From Candidatus Aldehydirespiratoraceae bacterium (lineage in GTDB: Bacteria; Actinomycetota; Acidimicrobiia; Acidimicrobiales; Aldehydirespiratoraceae): a DNA stretch of 64,000 bases. Positions 219 to 60,875 of the stretch are shown here, piece after piece (the first letter of the stretch is position 1; every line of letters starts with the position of its first letter). The stretch is taken from positions 3,021,800 through 3,085,799 of the forward strand of contig CBDFKX010000002.1 of NCBI GenBank assembly GCA_965249055.1, read 5' to 3'. The notes beneath the pieces were generated by a model. That model made no database searches. It was not told where the DNA came from and saw only the letters and a program-made list of their open reading frames with translations. The position numbers were made by a program, and so were the translations under genes.

Positions 219-1544
219 ATGAAATCTACAGTCGTAACCCAACCAAAACCGAGTACCGAAGACTCGTTTCATGTTGTCGAACTCGACGATGCAGGTGACG
301 CTTTAGAGATAGCAGCCAAGCTCGAATATGGTGGTTTGCCTGGTACTGTATTGGCTGATTCAACAGTGCGTGTCGCGGAGTTGAAAGCACAACTAGCGGC
401 GTTGGAATCTGAGATCGTTGCCGCTTATGACGCCTCGGGTGATTGGGAGGTTTCGGGTTACCGAACCGTTGGCGCAGCGTTGTCGCACCGTGCTCGAGTA
501 CGGCGCGCCGAAGCCAACCAGACGGTTCATCTGGCGCGTTCGCTCAAGGCAATGCCTGTCGTGTCTGACGCGCTCAGCAGCGGTGAGATCGGTCTCTGTC
601 ACGCACGTCGGCTGGCCAAAGCCTCCACACGCGACGGCTTCAGCGATGTTGAAGCGTTGTTGTGTGACCATGCCCGCGGACTCAGCTACACGGCTTTTGA
701 CAAAGTAGTGTCATATTGGGAACACCTCGTCGACACCAACGCAGCCGAACATGACGCGACGTTCAAAGAGCAACGCCGCGAGTTTCATGCATCGATGACA
801 TTCAACGGGATGGGACGCCTCGACGGATGGCTCGACCCGATCAGCTTCGAGGAGTTCCGCAACGCTTTGGACCGCATCGAAGCCGAACTGTTCAACAACG
901 ACCTACGAGACGCACAAGCCGACCACGTCGACAAACACGCCGCTGAACTATGGCGCACACCTGCACAAAGACGCGCTGATGCCCTAGTCGAGATGGCGCG
1001 GCGCGCCACCGCAGTGCCCGAAGACGCAAAGACCCCTGAACCGTTAGTAATCATCCACATGGACAAACCAACCTTCGAAACCGGCCTCAACCAAACCCTC
1101 GGCCTAACCCTGTTCACCAACACATCACCACCCAACCAACCCCCACCACCCGAAACCAACAGCGGTGACATGTCGACCAGCAGACCCAGCGAAACCAACA
1201 ACGGTGACATGTCGACCGGCAAACTCTGCGAAACAGACAGCGGGACGGTCATCACCCCAACCCAAGGCGTTGAACAAGCCCTCAAAGGCCACATCCGCCG
1301 CCTCGTCTACCAATCACCAGGCGTGATCTTAGACTACGGCCGCTCCACCCGACTCTTCACCGGAGCGCTACGCCAAGCCATACAAGCCCGAGACCGCACC
1401 TGCCGCCATCCCGGCTGCGACCTACCAGCCCGACAATGCGAAATCGACCACATCACCGAATGGCAACACGGCGGCACCACCACCCACACCAACGCCGCCA
1501 CCCGCTGCTCCTACCACCACCGCCACCACAAACCCCCCATATAA
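219..1544 (+). CDS. DUF222/HNH endonuclease domain protein (REP13E12-like)
   Basis: 441-aa ORF with a C-terminal HNH motif, CRHPGCDLPARQCEIDHITEWQHGGTT...CSYHHRHH. The N-terminal half looks like actinobacterial DUF222 (GEIGLCHARRLAKA). The coding strand is strongly C+A rich in the 3' half. Confidence 0.8.
   Translation: MKSTVVTQPKPSTEDSFHVVELDDAGDALEIAAKLEYGGLPGTVLADSTVRVAELKAQLAALESEIVAAYDASGDWEVSGYRTVGAALSHRARVRRAEANQTVHLARSLKAMPVVSDALSSGEIGLCHARRLAKASTRDGFSDVEALLCDHARGLSYTAFDKVVSYWEHLVDTNAAEHDATFKEQRREFHASMTFNGMGRLDGWLDPISFEEFRNALDRIEAELFNNDLRDAQADHVDKHAAELWRTPAQRRADALVEMARRATAVPEDAKTPEPLVIIHMDKPTFETGLNQTLGLTLFTNTSPPNQPPPPETNSGDMSTSRPSETNNGDMSTGKLCETDSGTVITPTQGVEQALKGHIRRLVYQSPGVILDYGRSTRLFTGALRQAIQARDRTCRHPGCDLPARQCEIDHITEWQHGGTTTHTNAATRCSYHHRHHKPPI
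1152..1244 (+). repeat. 39-bp in-frame tandem duplication (2 full units plus a partial third) inside the HNH gene
   Basis: gaaaccaacagcggtgacatgtcgaccagcagacccagc (1152-1190) is followed by gaaaccaacaacggtgacatgtcgaccggcaaactctgc (1191-1229) and then gaaacagacagcggg. The protein reads ETNSGDMSTSRPS / ETNNGDMSTGKLC / ETDSG. Confidence 0.75.
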
Positions 1545-1654
1545 AGTTCGGACCCACACCAGAATCACTACATGACCATGGCTGAGGCGGTCACGATCTT
1601 GTAGTGTGCCTTTGGTCAGTTGCTTGAGTTTCGGCTTGAGCCGTCTCGATCGGA

Positions 1655-4636
1655 ATGCTGTTGCTACGTCCTTGCTCCGTTAGGTCGCTTGTTGGTTGGT
1701 GTGGGTTGGTGGTGTGTTTGGCTGCGGGGTCGTTGACCGCGGCGTCGCCAGCGGCTGGTGTTGCCGGGTACGGAGATGTAGCCGACGATGAGTATTTCAC
1801 CAAGCCCGTTCAATGGTCGGTCGACAATGACATCGCCGGGATCGACGGGGATTGTTTTTTGCCTGACGCCCCGGTGTCTCGCGGAGAGGCTGCGGTTTAT
1901 ATCTGGAACATGGAAGGCCAGCCGTCTGCGCCTTCGCATTCGTTTGTTGACGTAACCAACGAAAACCAAAACACGGCCGTGTCGTGGATGTCTAAAAACC
2001 AGATCACTACAGGTAGCACCCCGACGACGTTCGAGCCCGACACCGCCTTGACGCGGGCGCATCTCGTCACGTTTTTGCATCGGCTGATTGGTGAGCCTGA
2101 GGCGCCAGCGCATCCCTTTGTCGATGTGCATGCCTCTTGGCAGCAAAACAGTGTTTCTTGGGCGTCTCACACAGGGATCACCACCGGTACTTCGCCGACG
2201 ACGTTCGAACCTGACAACACGTTGACACGGGCACATCTCGTCACGTTCCTGTGGCGTTACAAAGGCAAACCAGAAGTGACAGTCGACCCCGACACGCCAC
2301 GTTGCGATCCATCAAGCACCGACGAAACAGACACCAACGAAACAGACACCAACGAAACAGACACCAACGAAGCAACGGACACCAACGAAGCAACGGACAC
2401 CAACCGAGTGTTCACCGCGGTCTCCGTCGGCTCAGACCATTCGTGCGCAATAGACACCAACAACAAAATCGCATGCTGGGGACGAAATGACCATGGACAG
2501 GCTAATGCGCCACGCGGCGAGTTCACCATGGTCTCCGCCGGTCATGACCATTCGTGCGCGATACACACCAACGGCACGATCGAATGCTGGGGAGAAAACC
2601 ATCTTGGCGAGACAGATGCGCCCGACGGCGAATTCTCCACGGTCTCCACAGCCAGTTTTCATTCATGCGGGATACGCACCAACCGCACAATCGAATGCTG
2701 GGGACAAAACTATGTTGGGAGCACTGATCCTCCTCCCGGCGAGTTCATCACGCTCTCTGCCGGTGGCAACAGTTCATGTGGAATACGCACCAACAACAAA
2801 ACCGAATGCTGGGGCAGGAACAGTCACGGGCAGACTGATGCGCCAGACGGCAAATTCACCACAATCTCCGTCGGATCAGACCATTCATGCGCTGTAGACA
2901 CCAACAACAAAATCGAATGCTGGGGCAGGAACAGTCACGGGCAGACTGATGCGCCAGACGGCGAGTTCATCACAGTCTCCGCTGGCAGCAACCATTCGTG
3001 CGGAGTCCGTACCAGCGGGACAATCGAATGCTGGGGTTGGAACCTCAGCGGGCAGACTGATGCGCCGGACGGCGAGTTCATCACAGTCTCCGCTGGCAGC
3101 AACCATTCGTGCGGAGTCCGTACCAGCGGGACAATCGAATGCTGGGGCCCCAACTACCACGGACAGGCTGATGTGCCAGACGGCGAGTTCATCACAGTCT
3201 CCGCTGGCAGCAACCATTCGTGCGGAGTCCGTACCAGCGGGACAATCGAATGCTGGGGTTGGAACCTCAGCGGGCAGACTGATGCGCCGGACGGCGAGTT
3301 CATCACAGTCTCCGCTGGCAGCAACCATTCGTGCGGAGTCCGTACCAGCGGGACAATCGAATGCTGGGGCCCCAACTACCACGGACAGGCTGATGTGCCA
3401 GACGGCGAGTTCATCACAGTCTCCGCTGGCAGCTACCATTCGTGCGGAGTCCGTACCGACAGGACAATCCAATGCTGGGGTTGGAACCTCAGCGGGCAGA
3501 CTGATGCGCCGGACGGCGAGTTCATCACAGTCTCCGCTGGCTCAAACCATTCGTGCGGAGTCCGTACCAGCGGGACAATCGAATGCTGGGGTTGGGACAG
3601 TCATGGACTGTCCAGTGCGCCTGCGGGGGATTTCAGCACCGTTTCCGCTGGCTCAGGGCATTCGTGCGCGATAAGCACCAACAACAAAATCGAGTGCTGG
3701 GGCAGCAACTATTATGGACAGACCAGTGCGCCTGCGGGGGATTTCAGCACCGTTTCCGCTGGCTCAGAGCATTCGTGCGCGATAAGCACCAACAACAAAA
3801 TCGAATGCTGGCAATATCACTGGAACGGGCGGTCTGATGCGCCAGACGGCGAGTTCACCATGGTCTCCGCCGGCGGCCACCATTCGTGCGGAGTTCGCAC
3901 CGACGGCGCTATCGAGTGCTGGGGCGCCAACAGCAACGGTCGGGCTGATCCCCCGGTCAGCTACGAACCATCAGGCACAGCCCCAGAGGTGGTCACCGCG
4001 GTCCCTCCTGGCGATCACGACGTGATACAAGCGGTGTACGTAGTTCCGTCCGATAAGAGCCCGCTGGAAGGCCAGGACGCGGCGATCGCCCACGAGATCG
4101 GCGAGGTGCAGTCGTGGTTCGATGCCCAGACCGATGGCGCACATCCGGTGTTCGCCCGTGATGGGGACTCGATCTTGGTGACGACGGTCCAACTGTCCGG
4201 GTCGCTCGAGGAATTCGACACGGTCGCGCGGATACTAGACGAAATCCGCGCGACCGCGGATCAGCCCCTCTTACTGGTCGTGGAGGGCCGGTTGGACAAA
4301 GAGATTGACGCATGTGGCTGGACTGCCGGAACGGTGGTCGTGATTCCGATAGACAACTGCTCAAGCAGGCCATTGCGCGGTTCCGGATGGCCCTTGGGGG
4401 GGACATATCTGATCGCGCACGAACTAACCCACTTACTCGGCGCTGTTCCCTCCTGCGCCCCGAACTACGACGGCACCTCACACGTCGACGACGACAGGCG
4501 AGACATCCTATATTTGGGTGCCGGGGGGCGTGACTGGGACAACCTCGTGCTCGATTCCGGCAACGACGACTACTACAACCATGGGCGCGACGACTGCTTC
4601 GACATCGCCGACAGTCCTCTGCTCGGCAGTGACTGA
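1655..4636 (+). CDS. Secreted SLH-anchored protein with 14 RCC1-like blades and a C-terminal HExxH (zincin-like) domain
   Basis: 993-aa ORF with a hydrophobic signal-like N-terminus (VGWCGLVVCLAAGSL). It has three SLH-type repeats (FVDV..W....GITTG..PTTFEPD..LTRAHLVTFL.R) and a TD/TN acidic linker. Fourteen 37-aa units each carry HSCG/A...I(E/A)CWG.N..GQ.D.P, and the C-terminus contains IAHELTHLLG. The exact start is uncertain, because the paralogue suggests a start nearer VRSLVGW. Confidence 0.85.
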   Translation: MLLLRPCSVRSLVGWCGLVVCLAAGSLTAASPAAGVAGYGDVADDEYFTKPVQWSVDNDIAGIDGDCFLPDAPVSRGEAAVYIWNMEGQPSAPSHSFVDVTNENQNTAVSWMSKNQITTGSTPTTFEPDTALTRAHLVTFLHRLIGEPEAPAHPFVDVHASWQQNSVSWASHTGITTGTSPTTFEPDNTLTRAHLVTFLWRYKGKPEVTVDPDTPRCDPSSTDETDTNETDTNETDTNEATDTNEATDTNRVFTAVSVGSDHSCAIDTNNKIACWGRNDHGQANAPRGEFTMVSAGHDHSCAIHTNGTIECWGENHLGETDAPDGEFSTVSTASFHSCGIRTNRTIECWGQNYVGSTDPPPGEFITLSAGGNSSCGIRTNNKTECWGRNSHGQTDAPDGKFTTISVGSDHSCAVDTNNKIECWGRNSHGQTDAPDGEFITVSAGSNHSCGVRTSGTIECWGWNLSGQTDAPDGEFITVSAGSNHSCGVRTSGTIECWGPNYHGQADVPDGEFITVSAGSNHSCGVRTSGTIECWGWNLSGQTDAPDGEFITVSAGSNHSCGVRTSGTIECWGPNYHGQADVPDGEFITVSAGSYHSCGVRTDRTIQCWGWNLSGQTDAPDGEFITVSAGSNHSCGVRTSGTIECWGWDSHGLSSAPAGDFSTVSAGSGHSCAISTNNKIECWGSNYYGQTSAPAGDFSTVSAGSEHSCAISTNNKIECWQYHWNGRSDAPDGEFTMVSAGGHHSCGVRTDGAIECWGANSNGRADPPVSYEPSGTAPEVVTAVPPGDHDVIQAVYVVPSDKSPLEGQDAAIAHEIGEVQSWFDAQTDGAHPVFARDGDSILVTTVQLSGSLEEFDTVARILDEIRATADQPLLLVVEGRLDKEIDACGWTAGTVVVIPIDNCSSRPLRGSGWPLGGTYLIAHELTHLLGAVPSCAPNYDGTSHVDDDRRDILYLGAGGRDWDNLVLDSGNDDYYNHGRDDCFDIADSPLLGSD
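2324..2404 (+). repeat. Short in-frame tandem repeats encoding the acidic Thr/Asp/Asn/Glu linker
   Basis: gaaacagacaccaac occurs x3 (2324-2368) and gaagcaacggacaccaac x2 (2369-2404). The protein reads ETDTN x3 then EATDTN x2. Confidence 0.85.
2939..3604 (+). repeat. Six near-identical 111-bp tandem units (222-bp super-period) encoding RCC1-like blades
   Basis: Unit boundaries (GGG/GGA CAG codons) were checked by hand at 2939, 3050, 3161, 3272, 3383, 3494 and 3605. Units differ by only a few nt, alternating ...CWGWNLS and ...CWGPNYH subtypes. Confidence 0.9.
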
Positions 4637-4660
4637 CCGGTCCGCGCGAGGAACGTTTCG

Positions 4661-5980
4661 CTAAGGACTCTCGGAGTGATCGTCGGGTTCTGACTGGTGG
4701 CCGGGCCAGAACTCTCTGAGGCGGGCCTCGCGGCCGTGGTTCGTCGGTCTGTAGAACACCAGATCCGCAACTTCTGAGGGTCTGTAGTCCTGGGGCACCC
4801 AGCCGGAGGGATCGTCGTGGGGGTAGAGGTAACCGTCGCCATGGCCGAGGCTGGCGGCGCCCGAATAATGGGCGTCTCGTAGATGGACCGGAACCTCACC
4901 AGTCCCCGACCGTCTCGCAGCCTCACGGGCGGCACCCAAAGCGGTAGTCACCCGGTTCGATTTCGGGGCAGTGGCCAGATGCACCACAGCATGAGCCAGG
5001 TTGAGTTGGGCTTCTGGCAAGCCGACAAACTCAACTGCGTGGGCCGCCGCGTTGGCGATGAGCAGCGATTGTGGGTCGGCCATGCCGATGTCCTCAGATG
5101 CCAGGATCACCAGCCGCCGTGCAATGAACCGGGCATCCTCCCCCGCTTCGAGCATGCGAGCAAGCCAATACAGCCCAGAATCGGCATCGCTCCCCCGAAT
5201 CGACTTGATGAAGGCGCTGATCACGTCGTAGTGCCCGTCACGGCCATAGCGCACCGCCTTGGCGTCAACCGCGGCCTCGGCGTCGGCGAGCACAACATGG
5301 ATGGGACGACCACGATCAGCTGCCAGCGCGACTGCCACTTCGACACCGGTCAGCGCGTGGCGACCATCGCCGCCGCTACGGGCCGCAAGATGGGCGACGG
5401 CCTCTTCATCAGCAGTCGCTGACTCGATCTCAAGTCCTCGTCTGATGAGTTCTGCGACAGCCGGCTCGTCCAACGCATGCAGCCGGAACAGAGTCGATCT
5501 CGACATGAGGGGCGGGTTGACCTCGAAATGGGGATTCTCGGTGGTGGCCCCGATCAGCACAATCAGCCCTTCTTCGACCGCTGGCAACAGCGTGTCCTGT
5601 TGGGCTTTGTTGAAGCGGTGGACCTCGTCAAGGAACAGAATCGTTCCCATCTGCTGTTCACCGAGCCGCTGGCGAGCCCCAGCAATAATCTCACGGACAT
5701 CCTTGACCGAGGCCGCCACTGCCGAAAGTTCCTCAAAACGCTTGTTTGTGCTAGTCGCCACCAGACGAGCGAGCGAGGTCTTGCCGGTTCCCGGAGGTCC
5801 CCAAAGGATGACCGACGAAAGCCGGTCAGTCTCGATCAAAGCCCGTAACGGACGACCAGGAGCCAGCAAATGTTCTTGGCCGACGACATCGTCAAGGTTG
5901 CGGGGTCGCAGCCGGGCCGCCAGCGGCGAACGACTCCTCAGATGCTCTCGGGCCGCCTCAGAGAACAGGTCGCCGCTCAC
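4661..5980 (-). CDS. rarA: Replication-associated recombination protein A (AAA+ ATPase)
   Basis: 439 aa with Walker A GPPGTGKTSLARL, Walker B ILFLDEVHRFNK and the MgsA-type C-terminal helical region (YDVISAFIKSIRGSD, LYWLARML). Confidence 0.9.
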   Translation of the reverse strand: MSGDLFSEAAREHLRSRSPLAARLRPRNLDDVVGQEHLLAPGRPLRALIETDRLSSVILWGPPGTGKTSLARLVATSTNKRFEELSAVAASVKDVREIIAGARQRLGEQQMGTILFLDEVHRFNKAQQDTLLPAVEEGLIVLIGATTENPHFEVNPPLMSRSTLFRLHALDEPAVAELIRRGLEIESATADEEAVAHLAARSGGDGRHALTGVEVAVALAADRGRPIHVVLADAEAAVDAKAVRYGRDGHYDVISAFIKSIRGSDADSGLYWLARMLEAGEDARFIARRLVILASEDIGMADPQSLLIANAAAHAVEFVGLPEAQLNLAHAVVHLATAPKSNRVTTALGAAREAARRSGTGEVPVHLRDAHYSGAASLGHGDGYLYPHDDPSGWVPQDYRPSEVADLVFYRPTNHGREARLREFWPGHQSEPDDHSESP

Positions 5981-26293: not shown

Positions 26294-27070
26294 GTGCCGC
26301 TGACGCAGCCGCGTGAGGGACTCCCAGATTGGCTGGAGTTGCAACGGTTTAGCCGGTCTTCTAGGTATTTCACTGGGCCTGTTCAGTGGTCGGTTGACAA
26401 TGACATCAGCAATATTGGCGGGAATTGTTTTCTGCCCGATGAGCCAGTGTCTCGTGGCGAGACGGCGCTCTATCTCTGGAGCATGGAAGGCCAACCCGCG
26501 TTTGAATTTGGACATTCGTTCGTAGATGTGACTGTCGAAGCCCAGAATACTGCAATTACCTGGTTGTCCGAGACCGAAATAACCACCGGAACCTCCGACA
26601 CTGAGTTCTCGCCTCAAAACACCTTGAGGCGTGCTGAGATAGCGGCGTTTTTGCATCGTTTGGCCGGCGAACCGGACGCAGACCCGCATCCGTTCGTTGA
26701 TGTCCTAGCCGGTTGGCAACAAGCACCCGTTTCGTGGCTGGTAGCTTCTGGAATCACCACCGGAACGTCGCCGACAACGTTTTCGCCTGACGACAGGCTG
26801 ACCCGCGCTCAACTCGTCACGTTGTTGTGGCGCTACCAAGGCAAACCGGAAGTGACCGTCGATCCCTCCTCGCCAGTGTGTGATTCCAGGTTCAATGCCG
26901 TCAGCGCCGGTTGGTATCACAGTTGTGGTTTGCGCAGCGACGACTCAATCATCTGCTGGGGCGCCAACCTCTCAGGGCGGGCTGACGCACCCGAGGGCAG
27001 CTTCAAAGCCATCGCCACCGGAACGACTCAATCATCTGCTGGGGGCCGGTACCTACACCGCGGGGTGTGA
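26294..27070 (+). pseudogene. Truncated remnant of the SLH/RCC1-blade family, lacking a signal peptide and broken in the second blade
   Basis: Homology to the other two family members begins only at about 26370 (YFTGPVQWSVDNDI), so the signal peptide and first residues are missing. Three SLH repeats are retained. After one blade (WYHSCGLRSDDSIICWGANLSGRADAPEGSF) the frame breaks: acgactcaatcatctgctgggg at 27011 repeats 26939 in another frame. A stop follows at 27068. Confidence 0.7.
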
Positions 27071-27724: not shown

Positions 27725-29188
27725 GTGGTGATGCGGGTTCGGTTGGTGGGTTGGTGTGGGTTGGTGTTGTGTTTGGCGGCGTCTTCGCTGTTGGTGGCGG
27801 CACCGGCGGGCGCGGTCGCGGGTTACGGTGACGTAGCCGAGGATCGGTATTACACCGAGCCGGTCCAGTGGTCAGTCGACAACGACATCACCGATCTTTC
27901 CGGGAATTGCTTTGGCCCAGACGCTCCGGTGTCACGCGGAGAAACCGCGGTGTATTTCTGGAACATGGAAGGCCAACCCTCCGCTGTGGCTCATTCGTTC
28001 AGCGACATAGGAGTCCAAGCCCAAAACGATGCTGTTTCCTGGATGGCAGCCGCGGGTATCACCACCGGAACCTCACCAACCACGTTCTCTCCCGATGAGA
28101 CCTCGACGCGCGCTCAACTAGCAGCGTTCTTGCATCAGCTAGCAGGTCAACCAGCCACCGGGGCGCATTCCTTTGTTGATGTGGTCGAAGGTTGGCAACA
28201 CGCCCCCGTTTCTTGGCTGGCGACTTCTGGCATCACCACCGGAACCTCACCAACCACGTTCTCTCCCGATGAGACCTTGACGCGCGCTGACCTGGTCACG
28301 TTCCTGTACCGCTATCAGGGCGGACCTGATGTCACCGTAGACCCCCTCACGCCAACATGTGACCCCAGTGCGTTTCTAGCCATTGCCGCAGGCGGGTTGC
28401 ATTCGTGTGGGGTGCGCACAGACAACATCATCGCCTGCTGGGGCGACAACTACTGGGGGCAGACATATGCTCCTGCGGGAACATTTCAACACGTGTCCAC
28501 TGGCGCGAGTCACTCGTGCGCGATCCGCACAGACAACACGATCACTTGCTGGGCCAACAACCACAGAGGTCAATCCGATGCGCCGGCGGGAGAGTTCCAA
28601 AACGTCGCCACCGGAGCAAGCCACTCGTGCGCGATCCGCACAGACGACACCATCACTTGCTGGGGCGACGAAGAACACGGTGAAACGGATGCCCCCGCCA
28701 CAACATTTCTTACCGTCACCGCCGGAGCGAGCCACTCGTGCGCGATCCGCACAGACAACACGATTACCTGCTGGGGCAACAACCACAGAGGTCAATCCGA
28801 TGCGCCCGCGGGAGAGTTCCTAACCGTCAGCGCCAGCTACGAGCATTCATGTGGTTTGCGCACAGACAACACCATCACCTGCTGGGGCTGGAATTCTTAT
28901 GGACAAACAAACGCACCTACCGGAACGTTCCAAAATATCACCACCGGCACGTCGCATTCTTGTGCGATCCGCACAGACAACACCATCACCTGCTGGGGCT
29001 GGAATTCTTATGGACAAACAAACGCACCTACCGGAACGTTCCAGAATGTCACGACCGGCGCGTTCCATTCTTGTGCGATCCGCACAGACAACACCATCAC
29101 CTGCTGGGGCTGGAATTTCCACGGGCAAACAGAATCACCCACCCGCAACTGGTGGCCAGGCAGCGACGATCTGGTGCCAGGTATCTGA
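27725..29188 (+). CDS. Secreted SLH-anchored protein with 7 RCC1-like blades
   Basis: 487 aa with a signal-like N-terminus (LVGWCGLVLCLAASSLLVAAPAGA), three SLH repeats and seven 37-aa blades (HSCAIRTDNTITCWG.N..GQ.(D/N)AP.G.F). It is a clear paralogue of 1655-4636 without the HExxH domain. Confidence 0.85.
   Translation: MVMRVRLVGWCGLVLCLAASSLLVAAPAGAVAGYGDVAEDRYYTEPVQWSVDNDITDLSGNCFGPDAPVSRGETAVYFWNMEGQPSAVAHSFSDIGVQAQNDAVSWMAAAGITTGTSPTTFSPDETSTRAQLAAFLHQLAGQPATGAHSFVDVVEGWQHAPVSWLATSGITTGTSPTTFSPDETLTRADLVTFLYRYQGGPDVTVDPLTPTCDPSAFLAIAAGGLHSCGVRTDNIIACWGDNYWGQTYAPAGTFQHVSTGASHSCAIRTDNTITCWANNHRGQSDAPAGEFQNVATGASHSCAIRTDDTITCWGDEEHGETDAPATTFLTVTAGASHSCAIRTDNTITCWGNNHRGQSDAPAGEFLTVSASYEHSCGLRTDNTITCWGWNSYGQTNAPTGTFQNITTGTSHSCAIRTDNTITCWGWNSYGQTNAPTGTFQNVTTGAFHSCAIRTDNTITCWGWNFHGQTESPTRNWWPGSDDLVPGI
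28859..29117 (+). repeat. Near-identical 111-bp tandem units (about 2.3 copies) encoding blades 5-7
   Basis: ggacaaacaaacgcacctacc recurs at 28901 and 29012, exactly 111 bp apart. cgcacagacaacaccatcacctgctggggctggaatt recurs three times. An additional 222-bp-spaced pair lies at about 28505-28605 and 28727-28827. Confidence 0.85.
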
Positions 29189-42953: not shown

Positions 42954-43581
42954 TTGCGATCACCACGCCTGATTCGACTCTGATCGTCGGCGCGTCGACG
43001 ACGGCTCGGTTGGAAATCCCGAGCGCCACCAGGCCGGGAAGATCTGCATCAACGAGGGGGTATCTCAAATTGGTGGTGGTCACTCCCGTTGCCGTTCCGC
43101 CGACGGCGTGAAGCGCCAGCGGTTCGCCCGCCACCAGCGGAATAGTTCGCTCGTCGACACCGTGTACAACCCAGACCCGATGCTCCCCCACAACCGCGTC
43201 AATGTCGGCTTGTTGCCAACGCTTTGACGCGAGCACCAACAGATTGGCCAGTTGATGATCGAGACGACCTCCGTCTCGTAGCACCACATGTATCCTTTGA
43301 ACCCCGCTGTTGATTGCAGCGGACAAGGCGAGTTCAAGATCTGACTCGTCCTTGTCGCGCCGATGTTGCGCGATCTCTGAGCCGGCAGCAGTAGCCGCCG
43401 AAAGAGCCTCCGCTGAGACAGAGTCCAGGTCGCCGACCACCAAATCGACAGGTCTGTGTGCAGCCAACAGCACTTCCAGCCCCGCGTCGGCTGCTATCAC
43501 GAGGTCTGTTTGCGGGGCGCGCTCAACGGCTGGTTGAGGTGCCCCCGAGGCGACTACCAGAGCACTAGTAGCAGAGCGCAT
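42910..43581 (-). CDS. thiN: Thiamine pyrophosphokinase
   Basis: 223 aa with IAADAG...VVGDLDS, RDKDESDLELAL, DGGRLDH and a C-terminal thiamine-binding region (TTTNLRYPL). It overlaps the convergent ABC ATPase gene by 44 bp. Confidence 0.7.
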   Translation of the reverse strand: MRSATSALVVASGAPQPAVERAPQTDLVIAADAGLEVLLAAHRPVDLVVGDLDSVSAEALSAATAAGSEIAQHRRDKDESDLELALSAAINSGVQRIHVVLRDGGRLDHQLANLLVLASKRWQQADIDAVVGEHRVWVVHGVDERTIPLVAGEPLALHAVGGTATGVTTTNLRYPLVDADLPGLVALGISNRAVVDAPTIRVESGVVIAISSSMPSNAGSAVQ

Positions 43582-44966
43582 CAGGTGCCAAGCAATAGCA
43601 GCAAACCGATGACGGTGTAGGCGACCATCACCAGCAGCATCGGATATTGGGAGCGCAACGCTGTTTCACGTTGATACCGATCGATCGCCCGATCGTGCGC
43701 TGCGGCCACCGCAAGCACATGCCCTACCGCGATAGCAACAGCTTGAACCCAAGCAATCTGCTGGGGACTGACCAGAGTCCAGTTGATCGCATAGTCCCTG
43801 GTACCGAACAGGTCCCAGCCGTGCCCGAAGGGATCGGACAACAAGTTGATCAACACTTGCCCGTCCAGCAAGAGGGCGCTGAAATAGTGGGCTACCGCAT
43901 AGGCCACCACGATCGGCACGAGCGTTGGGGCGAACTCTTTGGCCAGGTCTCGGGTTGAATCACCAGTGACAACCGCCATCACTTTGATGGCCAGCGTGTA
44001 GAGCATCGCTACGAACGCGATGATCACGCCTAGACCGATCGTGTTCGTGAACACCGATTCCCAGCCGGTGAGGTCGCCGGCCAGGTCAAGCCAGATGGAG
44101 CTGCGGGTGAAGCCGTCGAATGTCGTCGCCCCGAGCACCGTCAAGATGAAAGCGACGCTGTACAGGCCACCACCCAAGGTGGTGAGTCCCGAGAGCGGGG
44201 TCCGCAGCCGCAGATCCTTGGCGTCGTCACGATATACCGGCGCGATCAGCGAGATTTTCTTGAACAACACCGCAAAACCGTCGGCAGAACGCACCCAGCC
44301 ACGTCCGAATGCGCCGGCACCGACAAGCATCACAGCTGAGTACACGGTCAAGAACACCGCAACCGAGCGGGGTGAATCGGTGCTGTGGTAGGCCAACTCA
44401 AACCAGAGGTAAGCCGCGATCGCCGCTACCGCAACCCACCCCACGAAATGGCCACCAGCTCCATGAGTCGCCGATGACATTGCGGTCTTGGCGATTCTGG
44501 CCTTCAGCCATGCTGCCGCATCGGCGATGGTCGTGTACGGGTTGAAGGCGCTCCAAACATCACCGACCAGCACAGACACCAGTTGCAATCCAACCCAGAA
44601 CCAGATCAGCAAAGCGGTTGGGGCGATGTTGACCGCTGCAGTGGGCTTACCCCACCAAGCTGCAAAGATCACCACCGCGAATCCCAAAACCCCAATGAGT
44701 TTGCAAACAACCGTGATGAACCTTGCAGGCGGAGACACCAGCGAGACAACCCGACGACCGGCGGCCGCCGCGGCCAGTCGTGGCTTGTCCCAAAAGGTTC
44801 CGAGCGCCACGAAAGACACAATCACCGAGAACGCCGCGGCCCAAGCCATCTGCCAAGCCGGCAGAGGAAGATCGGTGCGGCTTCCGGTGCCATGAGCGGC
44901 CACAGGTTGCGCTGCGCTCAGCAACCACGCACCCAAAACCAACCCGAAAAGCCAACGACGGATCAT
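43581..44966 (-). CDS. Polytopic membrane protein of unknown function (about 10-12 TM helices, signal-like N-terminus)
   Basis: The start was trimmed to the ATG at 44966 (MIRRWLFGLVLGAWLLSAAQPVAAHGTGS). The protein is hydrophobic throughout. A TGATG overlap joins it to the downstream thiamine pyrophosphokinase gene. Confidence 0.65.
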   Translation of the reverse strand: MIRRWLFGLVLGAWLLSAAQPVAAHGTGSRTDLPLPAWQMAWAAAFSVIVSFVALGTFWDKPRLAAAAAGRRVVSLVSPPARFITVVCKLIGVLGFAVVIFAAWWGKPTAAVNIAPTALLIWFWVGLQLVSVLVGDVWSAFNPYTTIADAAAWLKARIAKTAMSSATHGAGGHFVGWVAVAAIAAYLWFELAYHSTDSPRSVAVFLTVYSAVMLVGAGAFGRGWVRSADGFAVLFKKISLIAPVYRDDAKDLRLRTPLSGLTTLGGGLYSVAFILTVLGATTFDGFTRSSIWLDLAGDLTGWESVFTNTIGLGVIIAFVAMLYTLAIKVMAVVTGDSTRDLAKEFAPTLVPIVVAYAVAHYFSALLLDGQVLINLLSDPFGHGWDLFGTRDYAINWTLVSPQQIAWVQAVAIAVGHVLAVAAAHDRAIDRYQRETALRSQYPMLLVMVAYTVIGLLLLLGT

Positions 44967-45055
44967 GGGATGGCAGGGTAGTCCGGTTCGACAGCCGCTC
45001 ACGACGCGGCAAATGTACCTCTGTGACCGAAACAGCGAACGACGAATACCGCGAC

Positions 45056-50938: not shown

Positions 50939-52351
50939 TCAGGACTTGGGGGTCAGGTCGAACAGCACCCGGGTTCCTCCGGGTAGTTCCGTTCGTTGGC
51001 GAACATCGAAACGCTCGTTGATCTGCGCTTCGATGACCGAAAGCGTGTAGGCGTCATGGGTACCTGCACGCTTGTGGCTCTTGAGTTCCTTCACCTTCTG
51101 GTCTGATTCAGCGGGCACCTCCAGAACCACTTCAGCGTCGAGGTGGAAGAAAAAGTCGAGGATCGCCGCGGTCGGCACATTGTGGGTGAGAGCCAGGTGA
51201 TGGATCACCGCGAGGGCGAGCACCAACTCAGGTTTAGAACGGTCGGTGAGCGGCGGACGTTCGGTACCGCGCCAACCGATCCCAGGGGTCGGGTCCGCGA
51301 AGTTGACTACCAGCGGAATGATGCCTTCGGTGCCGACTTCGCGAAGTGACCGGTACAGGCGGTCTACGACTAGGGCATCGGCATCTAGGGCGAGCACAAC
51401 ATCGGCGTGCTCAACGGCAATCCGGCTGAACATCCCGTCGTTGGCGCCGATGTCCCAGACCTGCGAACGATGGCGTTGCGCCACAACTCCGCGCACGAAA
51501 TCGGCTTTGCTGAGCAGGTCGTTCGATGCGTAATGGCTCCGCTTCGAGTAGTCGGCCCACTCAGAATCAGAACGATTCCAGCTCAAGTTGTCGACAAGCT
51601 TGCGGAGCCGGTCGACCAAACCAACGTAGATCTTCTTGTTGTATCCGGCTCGTTTCAAGTCGTTGACGGTGTCTGCAGATCCTCCGCTGAAACGTCTGTC
51701 GGCCTTGGCGTGCAACCACACATGCGGGATCAGTCCTTTGCTGGAGTGGCGCCGACCCTGCAGCACCCGCCGAGCCTGCTCCGGGGTGATGCCGTCAATC
51801 GCACCACGCATCCATGGCTGGTGTGGGAGGTCCTTGTACGCCGTGAACAGCAACGGATACAGAAACATCTGACAGAACTGCCGGTAACCCCACCAAGGCT
51901 CGCCTTTCCGGTAGGGCTCAAATGAGGCGATGTCGATGAATGTCGGCTTCGCCCCGACGAATTGGACGTTGTATGGCGTGGCGTCCTTGCTGGTCATGTC
52001 TTCGTCGATCGCAGCTCGGACCAACTTGAGGGTGAGACTCGCGGCGTCCTGCAGCATTGAGAACGACCACTCGTGGGCGTACGTGATCACCTCGATAACG
52101 GAATGCTCAAGCACCAATGCCCAGTCAGATCCGTCGGGGGCCACAGCTTCAACCGGCTCGCAGCTGACCACATCTCCGGCCTTGCACGCTCCTCGATAGA
52201 AATTCGTGGCGGTCAACGCGGCGAAGTCCGTTGCCGCGGTCTCGTTGAGACCACGCAGCACGCGGCGGCCGTCACGCCACACACGCGAGTTCGGATCACG
52301 AAACGATCCGCTGTCGTAAACCGACTCCGGGCCGCTACCCGGGATCATCAC
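50939..52351 (-). CDS. Class I SAM-dependent methyltransferase with a large N-terminal domain (NoeA-like)
   Basis: 470 aa. The C-terminal half has SAM-binding motif I (VWDIGANDGMFS) and an acidic post-I residue (ALDAD). The N-terminal half has the YAHEWSF...LKLV...KDATPYNVQF...FIDIASFE pattern I associate with NoeA-type methyltransferases. Confidence 0.6.
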   Translation of the reverse strand: MMIPGSGPESVYDSGSFRDPNSRVWRDGRRVLRGLNETAATDFAALTATNFYRGACKAGDVVSCEPVEAVAPDGSDWALVLEHSVIEVITYAHEWSFSMLQDAASLTLKLVRAAIDEDMTSKDATPYNVQFVGAKPTFIDIASFEPYRKGEPWWGYRQFCQMFLYPLLFTAYKDLPHQPWMRGAIDGITPEQARRVLQGRRHSSKGLIPHVWLHAKADRRFSGGSADTVNDLKRAGYNKKIYVGLVDRLRKLVDNLSWNRSDSEWADYSKRSHYASNDLLSKADFVRGVVAQRHRSQVWDIGANDGMFSRIAVEHADVVLALDADALVVDRLYRSLREVGTEGIIPLVVNFADPTPGIGWRGTERPPLTDRSKPELVLALAVIHHLALTHNVPTAAILDFFFHLDAEVVLEVPAESDQKVKELKSHKRAGTHDAYTLSVIEAQINERFDVRQRTELPGGTRVLFDLTPKS

Positions 52352-54313: not shown

Positions 54314-56896
54314 GTGGGTCACACTTCTCGTGTGAAGACGCTGCTGTGGCGAATCGTTCATTTGCTAGTGCTCGCTACCTTGGCGATCAGCCAACCGTTG
54401 CTGAGCATCCTGGGCGAGAACCCAACCTTCTTCACTGCCCACTCGAGTTCACCGGGCCAGATTGTGGCGTTCGCAATCTTGGTCGCGCTAGTACCCACGT
54501 TTGTGCTCAGCGCGGTGATGCTCGGCGGACACGCCCACTCGCAGCGGGTCGGCCGACACATCTTCCGGGGCGCTATGGCAGCGCTGACCTTCCTGTTCGT
54601 CATTCAGGTGGTCGACGTGATCGGCGGGCCAGCTTTGCTAGTCATAGCAATCGCCATCGCCAGCACATATGGCCTCATGGCGGTCTATGTGAGGCACGAA
54701 CGGGTGCGCTCAGCGGTGTCGGTGTTGGCTGTGCTGCCTCCTTTAGTCGTCATCCATTTCCTGTTTGTCTCAGCTGCCAGCAGTGTCGTTTTCCCAGACG
54801 ATGTTGAGGCGGTAACGCTCGAAACGCTGCTCGGGGCAGATCTGGACGACATTGCGCATCCAGCAGATCAAGACAGACTCGAAAGCGCTGCCACTGACAA
54901 GGTAGACCCGGCCAACACCAGCACCAGACAAGACGACTCCGACAACGCTGCGGTCGGCCCAGATACCGTTGAGCAAGCCTCGCTGGTCGAGCGGCTGAAC
55001 GACCGGTTTCCACCGATCCATCTACTCGTATTCGATGAGCTGCCGTGGCACTCGCTGCTTGACGAGAGAGGCCAAATCGACTCGGTTCGCTACCGCAATT
55101 TCGCTCGGCTCGCTGAAACTTCACATGTCTTCAACAACGCCACTACGGATGGATTCACGACGGAGTTGGCGGTGCCTGCCTTGCTGGCAAGCACACTTCA
55201 GACTCAGCCCGCTCCGGTCTATTCGATGTATCCCAACAACCTGTTCACCTTGTTGGGCGGGGTGTACGACGTCTCGTCTTGGGATCCGCTTGTTGATCTC
55301 TGCCCCGACTCCGTATGCAACGGCTCAGCGCCGGAGCAGGTTCTCGAACTGATCGCGGTCGACGGAACTGTCTCCACCTCCACGACTGCCGCACCCGCAA
55401 TCACCGTCTCCGCCAGTTCAACAACAAACCCAACTACATCAACCACAGTTTCCACGACTTCAAGCGATGCGCCGCTGTCCGAGCCGACACACCACGAAAC
55501 GGGGGGTGACGACAAAGGCTCGCTCTCACTGTTGCTCCAAGATGCCGCGATCGTGTTCGGGCATCTCGCGGCACCGGAAGGGACGGATTTTGGCCTTCCG
55601 TCAATCGGAGCCGGATGGGGCAATTTTGGACGGGGTTTGACCACCGCGACAACCCCGACCGCTACCACCACCGCCAGCACCACAACCACCCAGAACGGCA
55701 CGACCACCACGGCAAACACCACAACAAGCACTCGGGTAGCGACCACAACCACTCAGCCATCATCGGACACCAGCCAAACCACGACCACACTGCAGATCGC
55801 CACCGACGTGGAAATCACTGATGGCACCGACCCCGTCGACCCGGAGCGCATAGCCGAGGAACGAACCGCATTTCTCGACAGCCTGATCTCTCTCGACACA
55901 CGCGTCTTCGACTTTCGAAGAGAGATTGCTGCGATCGAGGCAGGTGATCTCCCCCGCCTACATTTCATGCACACATTGTTGCCGCACGTGCCTTGGCGAC
56001 TGAGGCCCGATGGCTCAAGCTATGCCGATATCGGTCTGCCGGGGTATTTCTCCAAATGGGACGACGATCAAGACAAGGCACGATTCGGACAACAACGCCA
56101 CCTTCTGCAACTCGGCTTCGCAGACCATCTCCTAGGCGAGTATCTGGACCGCCTCGAAGCGATCGGAGACCTGGATCGCGCCATGGTGATCGTGACCGCG
56201 GACCACGGGATCTCGTTTGTGCCGGGTGAGCGATCCAGAGGAGTCAACGATGTCAACGTAGATGGCATCGCGGGTGTTCCGCTGATTCTCAAAGAACCAA
56301 ACCAGAAGACCGGGACGGTTCAACCCCAGCCTGTCCGGTTGATCGACATCGTGCCCACGATCGCCGCGCTGCTCGGGGTTGATGCGCCATGGGATTTCGC
56401 TGGGCGCAACATGTTCAGCGCGCAACCGGCGGTAGACCGTGCTGTTGGCGGAACTGGAGGTTCGGTGAAGGTGCCGGAGGACTTCACGACAATCACCAAC
56501 GAATTGGCTGCCGACATGCACGAAGTGTTCGGCGACGGGACCTCGGGCAGTCTCTACGGACTCGGCGGAGCGCACGATCTGATCGGCGCCCCGGCGCGGG
56601 ATTGGGCGACCAACCAATCCGCGCACTGCTGGGTCAAAGAACGGCCAACAACGATTCCTGACGCTGACGGATCGATCGGCTACGTGTTCGGGCTCATCGA
56701 CGCCCCACCGGGCGCGTCGATCGCCTTCGCAATTGTGGTAGACGGAATCGTGGCTGGTACGGCCAGGTCTTTTGAAGACGGCCCAGCTCACCGTGTCTTC
56801 GCCATTGGCGATTCGCAGTACTGGCAAGGCGAGGATCCAGCCGTCGAACTCCACGAGATCATCAATTCCCGCCTAGCCCCGATTCCACGCTGCTAG
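54314..56896 (+). CDS. Membrane-anchored sulfatase/alkaline-phosphatase-superfamily protein (LtaS/EptA-like) with Thr-rich inserts
   Basis: 860 aa with about five N-terminal TM helices. The extracytoplasmic domain carries LLVFDELPW, NATTDGFTTE, HTLLPHVPW and VIVTADHGISF motifs. Two Thr/Ser-rich low-complexity tracts lie at 55371-55466 and 55640-55795. Confidence 0.65.
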   Translation: MGHTSRVKTLLWRIVHLLVLATLAISQPLLSILGENPTFFTAHSSSPGQIVAFAILVALVPTFVLSAVMLGGHAHSQRVGRHIFRGAMAALTFLFVIQVVDVIGGPALLVIAIAIASTYGLMAVYVRHERVRSAVSVLAVLPPLVVIHFLFVSAASSVVFPDDVEAVTLETLLGADLDDIAHPADQDRLESAATDKVDPANTSTRQDDSDNAAVGPDTVEQASLVERLNDRFPPIHLLVFDELPWHSLLDERGQIDSVRYRNFARLAETSHVFNNATTDGFTTELAVPALLASTLQTQPAPVYSMYPNNLFTLLGGVYDVSSWDPLVDLCPDSVCNGSAPEQVLELIAVDGTVSTSTTAAPAITVSASSTTNPTTSTTVSTTSSDAPLSEPTHHETGGDDKGSLSLLLQDAAIVFGHLAAPEGTDFGLPSIGAGWGNFGRGLTTATTPTATTTASTTTTQNGTTTTANTTTSTRVATTTTQPSSDTSQTTTTLQIATDVEITDGTDPVDPERIAEERTAFLDSLISLDTRVFDFRREIAAIEAGDLPRLHFMHTLLPHVPWRLRPDGSSYADIGLPGYFSKWDDDQDKARFGQQRHLLQLGFADHLLGEYLDRLEAIGDLDRAMVIVTADHGISFVPGERSRGVNDVNVDGIAGVPLILKEPNQKTGTVQPQPVRLIDIVPTIAALLGVDAPWDFAGRNMFSAQPAVDRAVGGTGGSVKVPEDFTTITNELAADMHEVFGDGTSGSLYGLGGAHDLIGAPARDWATNQSAHCWVKERPTTIPDADGSIGYVFGLIDAPPGASIAFAIVVDGIVAGTARSFEDGPAHRVFAIGDSQYWQGEDPAVELHEIINSRLAPIPRC

Positions 56897-56953
56897 TCGC
56901 CCGAACGACACACCCGGGAGTGGTTCGGATGTGTTTCAGCCGGCGCAATCGGT

Positions 56954-59356: not shown

Positions 59357-60795
59357 CGTGGTGCTCCTACTGGTTGGCGCAACGCCAATCCGTGCATGAA
59401 GGCGTGATACGCCGGTTTCGGTCTGAGGTCTCGGTCAAAGAGTAGGGGTTGGTTCGGACCCTCAGAATCGAAGGGTGGGAAGTGGTCGAGCCAGCTATGG
59501 CTGTCGGCTGCGCCCCAGAGCATGACGCCACGGACTGCTGGGACCCCGGCGAAAGTCTCAGCCAGCATGTTGTAGGCGTCGGCCTGTGCACCGAGAGGGT
59601 CTGAATCATCGGAAAACAGACCGATTCTCATGTCCATCTCGGTGACCTCGATGAACGGTCCCAGATCTGAAAGTCGTCGAAGGAAACGGTCCAAGGACTT
59701 CGGATCGGGGACTCCCATAAGCATGTGGCCCTGGAGTCCGACGCCGTCTATCGGCACGCTTTGATCCAGGAGCCTTCGCACGAAGTCGATGAACTCGGTT
59801 GCGCTCAGCCCGTCGTATTCGTTCCACGAGATCTGTTCGTTGAGCACAAGTTCGGCGTCGGGGTCGACTTCGCGGGCAAGTCGGAACGACTCAGCTACAT
59901 AATCTTCGCCGAGAGTTTCAAAGAAGACGTTCTTGTCGAGCCCTTCGCCGCTGTAGGCCATCGGTTCGTTCACCACATCCCACACAGCGACCTTGCCCCG
60001 GTAACGGCCGGCAACTGTTGATATGTGCTCACGCATCAACTTGAGCAGGGTCTTTTGTGGATCACTGCTGGCACGAAGGGTCGATTCAAGATTGTGGGGC
60101 CGACCGCCGCGACCCCAGATGAGGGTATGGCCGCGCAGACGCATGTCGTGGCGCTCGGCATAGTCGGCAAAGGCATCGGCCAGCGTGAAGTCGTAGTCGC
60201 CGACGAGTCGCGCCAGGCGGTTCCATTTGAAGGCGTTCTCGGCACCGATTCCGTTGAATTCGTGACGCACCAGTTCTGCTTCTGGGCCTGTTGGCGCTGG
60301 GATCGCCGCCCCGATGTAGAAGTCGCGCGCTGCGGCCACTTGGCGCAGACTTTCCGGCGTTGGCAAGCGTTCTGCCAGACGAGCCTCCCAGCGTTGTAGC
60401 GACGGCGAGTCTTGCGGGCTCAGGTACCCCATTGATCCAGACGATTTGACCTGGGAGGCCGAGGACTTGCGAGGTGACATGAGTGACCCGAACGCCGACA
60501 TCGCCATCAGATCGCCTTCGATACGCATCCGGCCTTCCATGAACGCCTTCATCGAGTCGAACCGGCCAGAGAATATGAGCGGCGCGTCTTGGGGTGTAGT
60601 AATGACGGTCGATGTGGCATCGCCTTCGCCTACGAGCAGTTCGCATCGGCCATCGACGATGACCAACCGGTAGGCGTCTCGACCGTCGGGCCGGTCGATC
60701 ACGAACTGGTAGGTGGCGGTGACATCGCTGTTGCGCTCGTTGATCTTGCGAGCGGTTCTCTCCAAGACCGCTCTCAGCGACTCTGAATCAGACAT
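59353..60795 (-). CDS. SCP2 sterol-carrier-like domain fused to a GH10 endo-beta-1,4-xylanase-like domain
   Basis: 480 aa without a signal peptide. The N-terminal 105 aa look like SCP2 (ATYQFVI....AYRLVIVDG.....MKAFMEGRMRIEGDLMAM). The GH10 motifs are ENAFKWN, GHTLIWG, WDVVNEP, VLNEQ, GLQGHM and VTEMD. It overlaps the GH3 gene start by 4 bp. Confidence 0.8.
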   Translation of the reverse strand: MSDSESLRAVLERTARKINERNSDVTATYQFVIDRPDGRDAYRLVIVDGRCELLVGEGDATSTVITTPQDAPLIFSGRFDSMKAFMEGRMRIEGDLMAMSAFGSLMSPRKSSASQVKSSGSMGYLSPQDSPSLQRWEARLAERLPTPESLRQVAAARDFYIGAAIPAPTGPEAELVRHEFNGIGAENAFKWNRLARLVGDYDFTLADAFADYAERHDMRLRGHTLIWGRGGRPHNLESTLRASSDPQKTLLKLMREHISTVAGRYRGKVAVWDVVNEPMAYSGEGLDKNVFFETLGEDYVAESFRLAREVDPDAELVLNEQISWNEYDGLSATEFIDFVRRLLDQSVPIDGVGLQGHMLMGVPDPKSLDRFLRRLSDLGPFIEVTEMDMRIGLFSDDSDPLGAQADAYNMLAETFAGVPAVRGVMLWGAADSHSWLDHFPPFDSEGPNQPLLFDRDLRPKPAYHAFMHGLALRQPVGAPR

Positions 60796-60875
60796 TCATG
60801 TTCTTCCCACTGGACATTTCCTACCATCGGTATATTATCTCGCCAAGTGACCAGCGTCACCGCAGGGGAGACACC

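Follow-up and report, generated by a model that had tools for sequence, protein, structure and literature searches.

A putative surface protein of an Aldehydirespiratoraceae bacterium (Acidimicrobiia) that joins three S-layer homology domains, two predicted seven-bladed propellers and a C-terminal HExxH domain

Proteins in which a signal peptide and three S-layer homology (SLH) domains are joined to a functional part are known from the Firmicutes (Bacillus anthracis Sap, EA1 and BSL; Paenibacillus alvei SpaA and SlhA), where several paralogs with different functional domains occur in one genome. The CWP family of Clostridioides difficile is built in a similar manner, with three CWB2 domains as a constant wall-binding module and a variable effector as swappable cargo. 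Seven-bladed propellers made of three-stranded blades of ~40 amino acids (aa) occur in BLIP-II, a protein secreted by the actinobacterium Streptomyces exfoliatus (PDB 1jtd, 3qhy), and repeats of ~37–39 aa, each with two cysteines, form the seven blades of the plant CRINKLY4 receptors (ACR4/PpCR4; PDB 7a0j, 7a0k). Metzincins such as fragilysin (BFT) and MPII of Bacteroides fragilis, adamalysin/ADAMTS and ulilysin carry the motif HExxHxxG on a helix that follows a five-stranded sheet and two helices. Here, we analysed a stretch of 64,000 nucleotides, hereafter the window, from a Candidatus Aldehydirespiratoraceae bacterium (contig CBDFKX010000002.1, positions 3,021,800 to 3,085,799 of the forward strand), in which a single open reading frame (ORF) at 1655–4636 encodes a 993-aa protein with likenesses to all of these systems. 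We lean, with moderate confidence, towards reading it as an SLH-anchored, surface-displayed metalloprotease in which the propellers would act as binding or spacer modules.

A preliminary description of this DNA had proposed a signal-like N-terminus, three SLH repeats, an acidic linker rich in TD and TN, exactly 14 consecutive 37-aa units that would fit two 7-bladed propellers, and a C-terminal region with the motif HELTH. This architecture is confirmed, and the interpretation that had been attached to it is partly supported. In a Pfam scan of the 993-aa protein, RCC1_2 was matched by 14 stretches (E = 1.7e-99, 323.9 bits, cut-off 22) and SLH by three (E = 2.4e-16, 59.8 bits, cut-off 20.8), and the RCC1-like-domain model WD40_RLD reached 177 bits, above its cut-off of 150. 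In line with the statement that no characterised protein has this anchor-propeller-zincin layout, our literature searches found no paper describing the combination of SLH, propellers and HExxH, the HExxH family, or an expansion of SLH-propeller proteins in the Acidimicrobiia. An exact-sequence lookup likewise found the 993-aa sequence absent from public collections. The base composition of the ORF is unremarkable (local GC 0.56–0.59 vs ~0.60 window-wide), and scans for promoters and terminators over 1400–4800 gave only background levels.

The N-terminus has the look of a Sec-type signal peptide, with R5 and R10 ahead of a 15-residue hydrophobic core (LVGWCGLVVCLAAGSL; Kyte-Doolittle ~2.0) that runs into TAASPAAG and a segment rich in Ala, Ser, Pro and Gly, and this signal-like character is kept in a paralog (27725–29188) and in the orthologs. 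No twin-Arg motif is present in the N-terminus, and a lipoprotein reading was dropped because LVVC makes a poor lipobox. The mature protein would contain 34 Cys, an even number with every one at a conserved position, which fits an oxidised extracytoplasmic protein.

When residues 246–763 are cut every 37 aa, 14 repeat units fall into perfect register without a single insertion or deletion, each carrying (H/S)SC(G/A)...CW(G/Q), and the array holds 28 Cys, two per unit. An AlphaFold2 (AF2) model of residues 240–780 (m9d83fa88f0de, built on a 17-sequence alignment) has a mean predicted local distance difference test score (pLDDT) of 86.6, with most positions above 90, three strands per unit and a sole internal dip in confidence at the junction of units 7 and 8. 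Foldseek aligned about half of the model with BLIP-II (3qhy_B, template modelling (TM) score TMt 0.80, root-mean-square deviation (rmsd) 3.7 Å, 283 columns, 27% identity) and about half with the ACR4 CRINKLY ectodomain (7a0j, TMt 0.78, rmsd 3.3 Å, 273 columns), and the four-stranded propellers of RCC1 and UVR8 fitted more poorly than either. By sequence, too, the best PDB match was ACR4 (E = 2.7e-23), followed by BLIP-II (phmmer E = 6e-15). Two tandem, closed seven-bladed propellers are therefore predicted with high confidence, as had been proposed, and repeat counts among 120 relatives, which peak at 7 (15 proteins), 14 (47) and 21 (21), lend independent support to seven-unit propellers. The earlier label of RCC1-like blades holds as far as the RCC1_2 profile and the predicted propellers are concerned, but not for the canonical RCC1 type: PF00415 was unmatched in the Pfam scan, and canonical blades, which are four-stranded and 51–68 aa long, are ruled out by units that have 37 aa and three strands. 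The blades instead belong to the BLIP-II/CRINKLY4 subtype.

The two Cys of each unit (in HSCG... and ...CWG) are present without exception in 17 homologs, and their positions correspond to the CG. and CWG of ACR4. In CRINKLY4, each blade is closed by one disulfide, a feature stated to be unique to this receptor (10.1101/2020.08.10.245050); by analogy, one disulfide per blade may be expected in the 14 units described here. The sharing of the Cys pair by a bacterial family qualifies the published claim of uniqueness to plant receptors. CRINKLY4 differs in being a receptor kinase that spans the membrane and has a cysteine-rich, TNFR-like domain as well as an N-terminal strand that fills the pore. 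BLIP-II consists of one free propeller and has no blade disulfides, anchor or enzyme domain, and nothing observed here points to binding of beta-lactamases.

The residues through which SLH domains contact their ligand have been defined as Trp13, Gly29 of GIIxG and Arg43 of TRAE, and their contacts to pyruvylated N-acetylmannosamine have been shown for SpaA of P. alvei (PMC6081394). All three SLH copies of the ORF retain Trp13, the Gly (AGIDG, ITTG and GITTG in copies 1, 2 and 3) and the Arg (SRGE, TRAH and TRAH), and PDB sequence matches were obtained to the SLH trimer of B. anthracis Sap (3pyw, 6bt4, 9g93). Lying in tandem, the three copies should be able to form a pseudo-threefold spindle, with a wall polysaccharide as the presumptive ligand. 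SLH anchors had been described as classical for Firmicutes, cyanobacteria and Thermotogae, and they are indeed uncommon in Actinobacteria but were already known there, with 33 species in Pfam in 2018 (PMC6081394) and SLH/CsaB reported to have been kept in a few cases (10.1101/2021.05.31.446380). Unlike the SLH proteins of the Firmicutes, the one described here has an actinobacterial host, TRAE motifs of the form SRGE/TRAH/TRAH and a passenger made up of a BLIP-II-type double propeller and an unnamed HExxH domain. The resemblance to the CWP family of C. difficile is one of design, as the anchor fold is SLH and not CWB2 and there is no whole-protein homology.

Between anchor and propellers, the DNA for the acidic linker contains a 15-bp tandem repeat (Tandem Repeats Finder (TRF), 4.7 copies, 2317–2389), and its copy number varies from ~5 (TDTNE) units here to ~8–10 in the orthologs at loci L001 and L002. 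The (TDTNE)n microsatellite would accordingly provide a spacer of variable length from the anchor to the propellers. Two further Cys, Cys67 in the first SLH copy (nucleotides 1853–1855) and Cys217 at the start of the linker (nucleotides 2303–2305), are conserved in both paralogs within the window and in the distant homolog P0065; a disulfide between them may tie the linker back to the SLH trimer.

The C-terminal region with HELTH, as delimited here, spans 228 aa (residues 766–993), and LLG follows the motif to give HExxHxxG (HELTHLLGAVP). A word-indexed search with this domain alone returned 16 proteins and missed the full-length orthologs; an exhaustive profile search, used instead, retrieved 1,601 representative clusters (50% identity) at E ≤ 1e-3 and 914 at E ≤ 1e-10. 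Among GTDB species genomes the domain occurs mainly in Acidimicrobiia, and relatives with 26–33% identity were found in Chloroflexota, Thermoleophilia, Myxococcota, some Proteobacteria and one archaeal metagenome-assembled genome (MAG). Conservation was counted across 163 family members with numbering from the first His of HExxH: H922, E923, H926 and G929 (0, +1, +4 and +7) are each kept in 99%, C934-A-P (+12 to +14) in ~90%, H943 (+21) in 98%, D950 (+28) and D967 (+45) in 100%, D971 and D972 (+49 and +50) in 98–99% and Y973 (+51) in 100%. Four Cys of the domain (887, 902, 934 and 981) are conserved as well.

An AF2 model of the domain (pLDDT 75.8 overall, 85–96 in the core) gave Foldseek leaders that all belong to the metzincin clan, namely fragilysin/BFT, MPII, the O-glycopeptidases OgpA and Amuc_1438, ADAMTS-4/5, ADAM22 and ulilysin (probability 0.97–1.0), and in a comparison of the family profile with PDB sequences MPII (4on1) was matched over the strand and the active-site helix (E = 0.0049). 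The predicted succession of secondary-structure elements, which ends in the helix that bears HELTH, fits that of the metzincin N-terminal sub-domain (beta1-alphaA-beta2-alphaB-beta3-beta4-beta5-alphaC). Unlike in metzincins, the conserved His at +21 is preceded by an 11-residue loop containing Cys-Ala-Pro, the Gly+3 ligand and the Met-turn are missing, no propeptide is evident, and there is a distinctive Asp-rich C-terminal sub-domain with LDxGNDDY. As this ligand and the Met-turn are missing, we assign the domain to an unnamed family of metzincin-like zincins and to none of the known peptidase families. The third zinc ligand would most likely be H943 or D950, displaced by the Cys-containing loop. 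Assignment to the aspzincins (GTxDxxYG), which had been considered because of GNDDYY, was dropped, the spacing being wrong and the Tyr-Gly missing.

If the protein is an anchored surface metalloprotease, its N-terminal signal peptide would direct it into Sec export and three SLH domains folded as a pseudo-trimer would hold it non-covalently at a wall polysaccharide, with the acidic linker separating the remainder from the wall by a variable distance. The propellers, each blade stapled by one disulfide, could serve as a rigid stalk and as a platform for binding ligand or substrate, a role suggested by CRINKLY4 and BLIP-II. In the terminal domain, H922 and H926 would bind zinc together with H943 or D950, and E923 would act as general base; that residues 766–993 are catalytic at all is suggested by the motif, its conservation and the predicted fold. 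Extracellular proteins would then be cleaved at the cell surface, possibly for nutrient acquisition or for remodelling of a host or an extracellular matrix.

A number of observations weigh against this reading. Residues 766–993 match no curated peptidase model at threshold in Pfam or NCBIfam, both searched to E 1, the sole hint from a curated model being NCBIfam fragilysin at 13.4 bits (cut-off 190.7), and nothing at threshold was found in PHROGs or PADLOC. TM-scores of the Foldseek matches are just ~0.4 at 8–19% identity, and pLDDT falls to 45–72 in the C-terminal third of the domain model, the part that has to contain the third ligand. At the third-ligand position of HExxHxxGxxH/D the protein has Pro, with the next invariant residues at +21 (His) and +28 (Asp), and no Met follows the motif; the candidate Met-turn column (+30) holds L in 56%, I in 20% and M in 17% of the family and Leu in this protein. 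As to the anchor, no match to csaB or PS_pyruv_trans was found among the 38 ORFs of the window that were scanned, and a 259-bp exact repeat in the blade array, discussed below, makes the precise sequence of units 6–9 uncertain. The zincin assignment of the preliminary description is to be taken as a prediction, with neither a curated peptidase model, nor a third His in its usual position, nor a conserved Met-turn behind it.

Fusion partners of the terminal domain fit an extracytoplasmic enzyme, since wall-binding and other extracellular modules prevail: in 40 diverse family members, RCC1_2 was present in 11, CWB2, the wall-binding domain of the CWP family, in 10 and SLH in five, and fn3, FG-GAP, PD40 and CAP domains and, in one case, a Hint module were also seen. 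Many SLH- or CWB2-anchored enzymes of the Firmicutes are wall hydrolases. The CWB2 and SLH fusions could therefore also mean that the terminal domain remodels the cell wall, either its own or that of a neighbour, as a stem-peptide or cross-bridge metallopeptidase or an autolysin that the SLH domains place on its substrate, and HExxH with a downstream His or Asp is compatible with a peptide-bond hydrolase on any substrate. We consider this unlikely, as the structural neighbours are all metzincin-clan proteases or glycoproteases with no LAS, M15 or M23 wall peptidases among them, the domain lies distal to ~520 propeller residues and a spacer and would face away from the wall, and sister proteins carry cargo (S8, trypsin, CAP, PLD) that is not directed at the wall.

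The protein described here belongs to a much larger set. More than 2,500 proteins, mostly with SLH, match it at E ≤ 1e-20, and the same architecture is already present in public Acidimicrobiaceae MAGs, where MYD06094.1 and its cluster mates (970 aa, 71% identity, 100% query coverage) are annotated as 'hypothetical protein' or 'S-layer homology domain-containing protein'; the earlier claim that the ORF is the founding member of its family is thereby contradicted. Among the best 120 relatives, 98 have a similar N-terminal region of ~240 aa and 72 end in a tail of 80 aa or more, the tails falling into 15 families. The largest of these (33 of 72, e.g., P0065; also encoded on OZ240616.1) is ~419 aa long, carries HELIHNLGLLD and has a sub-threshold match to Peptidase_M6, the family of Immune inhibitor A; it appears to be another domain of zincin type that lacks a name. 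The second largest (15 of 72) is the HExxH domain of ORF 1655–4636. Homology between the two is not demonstrable, with an hhalign probability of 4%. The M6-like tail is the one most often found in place of the HExxH domain on the SLH-double-propeller scaffold, which makes the joining of anchor, propellers and zincin a recurrent design. Elsewhere the propellers carry S8 subtilases, trypsin-like proteases, CAP, PLD, cytochrome b5 or fn3 domains, and in many relatives no cargo at all. Given this varied and mostly proteolytic cargo, anchor, propeller and protease appear to be combined repeatedly, with ORF 1655–4636 as one instance, and the ORF would represent one member of a large lineage-specific SLH-propeller set with interchangeable cargo.

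A scaffold of anchored repeats with at least 15 different tail families could also belong to a polymorphic-toxin-like effector that delivers a variable metallopeptidase toxin to competitors, and the one relative of the terminal domain with a Hint module has it upstream, Hint modules being a feature of polymorphic toxins (PMC3482391). This seems highly improbable to us: what follows the ORF, after 25 bp, is rarA, a convergent housekeeping gene, and not an immunity-like gene, no small conserved neighbour was found across 55 loci, the housekeeping context is conserved in at least nine genomes, and neither a match to Pfam Tox-MPTase or PADLOC nor a specialised secretion domain was found. The mention of 'RCC1' in the same polymorphic-toxin paper is the name of a virus strain and irrelevant here.

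The conserved context consists of a DUF222 gene, the SLH-propeller gene and the convergent genes rarA-aspS-hisS-relA. It is common to the window and to locus L001 on OZ240616.1, a chromosome-level 'Candidatus Aldehydirespiratoraceae' MAG of 4.15 Mb, and the two loci are 92–96% identical at the DNA level. The syntenic ortholog at L001 (1,015 aa) has the same start (MLLLRPCSVRS...), three SLH domains, a longer (TDTNE)n linker and 14 units. Flanking SLH domains are 95–96% and C-terminal domains 96% identical between the two proteins, and the blades differ, the outer ones being 95–100% and the central ones 54–84% identical. At the same chromosomal locus, L004, L005, L009 and L010 have a gene of one propeller with seven blades (688–716 aa), from which it follows that the 14-blade form arose by propeller duplication. 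DUF222 proteins are HNH-associated and form an often multicopy actinobacterial family; the one directly upstream lies at 219–1544 (+), and homologs adjoin genes for the C-terminal domain in 10 of 55 loci, which may only reflect their high copy number.

Within the array, a 259-bp exact direct repeat with starts at 2953 and 3175 (offset 222 bp, span 2953–3433) makes units 6–7 and units 8–9 near-identical, with 100% identity between units 7 and 9 across 111 bp. The ortholog at L001 lacks this repeat and has a different pair of near-duplicate blades. RCC1/BLIP-II propellers tend to be re-amplified from single blades (PMC9218822), and near-duplicates that differ between orthologs while the total is held at 14 point to ongoing intragenic conversion or amplification. 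The 259-bp repeat itself represents either a recent, lineage-specific gene conversion or a weakness of the assembly. Were the assembly at fault, the blade array might be mis-assembled and the true gene broken or decaying, and public copies are in fact often partial or split: in L056 (a contig of ERZ25071132 with 6x coverage), P0151, P0153, P0156 and P0157 the gene is split or ends at the contig edge, split calls yield N-terminal ORFs of 256–261 aa (frameshifted in the linker) and a C-terminal ORF of 258 aa, and an ortholog from a short-read MAG has 13 units. Such copies come from fragmented or low-coverage assemblies and account for the poor annotation of the family. That the ORF described here is an artefact or in decay we regard as most improbable, because its codons are uninterrupted, the syntenic ortholog at L001 is intact with the same number of units and near-identical flanking domains, 14 conforms to the 7/14/21 rule and AF2 folds both halves with confidence.

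The faster divergence of the central blades would suit a changing binding surface and bears on another possibility, namely that the protein is mainly an adhesin or a eukaryote-like host-interaction protein whose propellers bind a host or matrix ligand, with a non-catalytic or accessory HExxH domain. The propellers of BLIP-II and CRINKLY4 serve to bind proteins or ligands, many relatives, like the paralog at 27725–29188, have propellers without cargo, and lineages with sponge symbionts among their members show a great expansion of the family. Sponge-symbiont lineages occur in both the Aldehydirespiratoraceae (formerly UBA11606) and the Poriferisodalaceae (TK06) (PMC11706023), and several MAGs with matches belong to such taxa; the layout is frequent, if so far unstudied, among Acidimicrobiia from the sea and from sponges. 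We judge a mainly adhesive role unlikely, since the H, E, H, G, H and D of the terminal domain are conserved at 98–100% over 163 diverse members, which argues for a maintained catalytic site, and binding and catalysis can coexist in a metalloprotease displayed at the surface.

Two further copies of the SLH-propeller module lie in the window (Table 1). Paralog B is 56% identical to residues 12–508 of the 993-aa protein and constitutes an anchored bare propeller, which suggests that the propeller has a binding function of its own. Paralog A, 655 bp upstream of paralog B, is 65–67% identical to the 993-aa protein in its SLH region and is probably a decaying gene copy or remnant, given the missing signal peptide and the early stop. 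The three-copy family of the preliminary description therefore exists in number, one of its copies being a truncated remnant. Elsewhere in the window, 54314–60795 encodes a large sulfatase-domain protein (860 aa), a GH3 protein and a GH10 domain fused to an SCP2 domain, candidate genes for glycan degradation that are unrelated to the SLH-propeller genes. Three ORFs of 470–509 aa at 43581–45002 (-), 50939–52351 (-) and 60798–62327 (+) have no Pfam match (E ≤ 1e-6 to 1e-8), the first of them overlapping an APH-family ORF on the + strand and possibly being spurious.

Table 1. Positions in the window of the SLH-propeller-HExxH gene, its predicted parts and its two paralogs
Feature	Residues	Position	Strand	Basis
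Full ORF, ATG start, uninterrupted 993 codons and stop		1655–4636	+	ORF call and translation
Sec-type signal-peptide-like N-terminus	~1–34	1655–1756	+	Sequence and hydropathy; cleavage site inferred
Three tandem SLH domains	39–92, 97–150, 155–208	1769–2278	+	Pfam SLH; boundaries by eye
Acidic Thr/Asp/Asn/Glu linker with (TDTNE)n	209–250	2279–2404	+	TRF and ortholog alignment
Predicted propeller 1, units 1–7	~251–504	2405–3166	+	AF2 and Foldseek
Predicted propeller 2, units 8–14	~505–765	3167–3949	+	AF2 and Foldseek
C-terminal domain, putative member of an unnamed zincin/metzincin-like family	766–993	3950–4633	+	AF2, Foldseek, conservation
HELTH on predicted active-site helix (domain helix 152–162)	922–926	4418–4432	+	Sequence and AF2
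Paralog A, 258 aa: SLH region and ~1.5 units, then stop; no signal peptide		26294–27070	+	Sequence comparison
Paralog B, 487 aa: signal peptide, SLH and exactly 7 units, no cargo		27725–29188	+	Sequence comparison

Most parts of the protein are of known kinds, as SLH anchors, BLIP-II/CRINKLY propellers and SLH-anchored enzymes have all been described, and the C-terminal domain is the sole module of a type not known before. New are the combination of modules, the unnamed zincin family with its non-canonical metal-site layout and the expansion of SLH-propeller proteins in Acidimicrobiia related to sponge symbionts. A wider reading, which we offer tentatively and hold to be doubtful as a whole, would join these points: Acidimicrobiia with sponge symbionts among them would possess a lineage-specific surface-display system of SLH domains and one to three disulfide-stapled propellers with swapped cargo (two unrelated zincins, S8, trypsin-like, CAP and PLD domains); the cargo of ORF 1655–4636 would found a metzincin-related family in which a disulfide-tied Cys-Ala-Pro loop shifts the third ligand to His+21 or Asp+28 and the Met of the Met-turn is replaced; and the blade Cys pattern would be a widespread bacterial extracellular adaptation, possibly the source of the plant CRINKLY4 ectodomain.

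No established concept is overturned by these findings. RCC1-type repeats and SLH domains are not included in surveys of 'eukaryote-like' proteins in sponge symbionts (PMC11706023), so that these candidates for interaction with a host or matrix have been overlooked as a class. If the C-terminal domain is active, it would stand for a sizeable unnamed metallopeptidase family of ~1,600 clusters at 50% identity with a non-canonical metal site, and the reading of ORF 1655–4636 as an anchored surface metalloprotease would, if true, assign a role to one branch of the SLH-propeller surface proteins, a very large set without annotation that marine and sponge-associated Acidimicrobiia encode.

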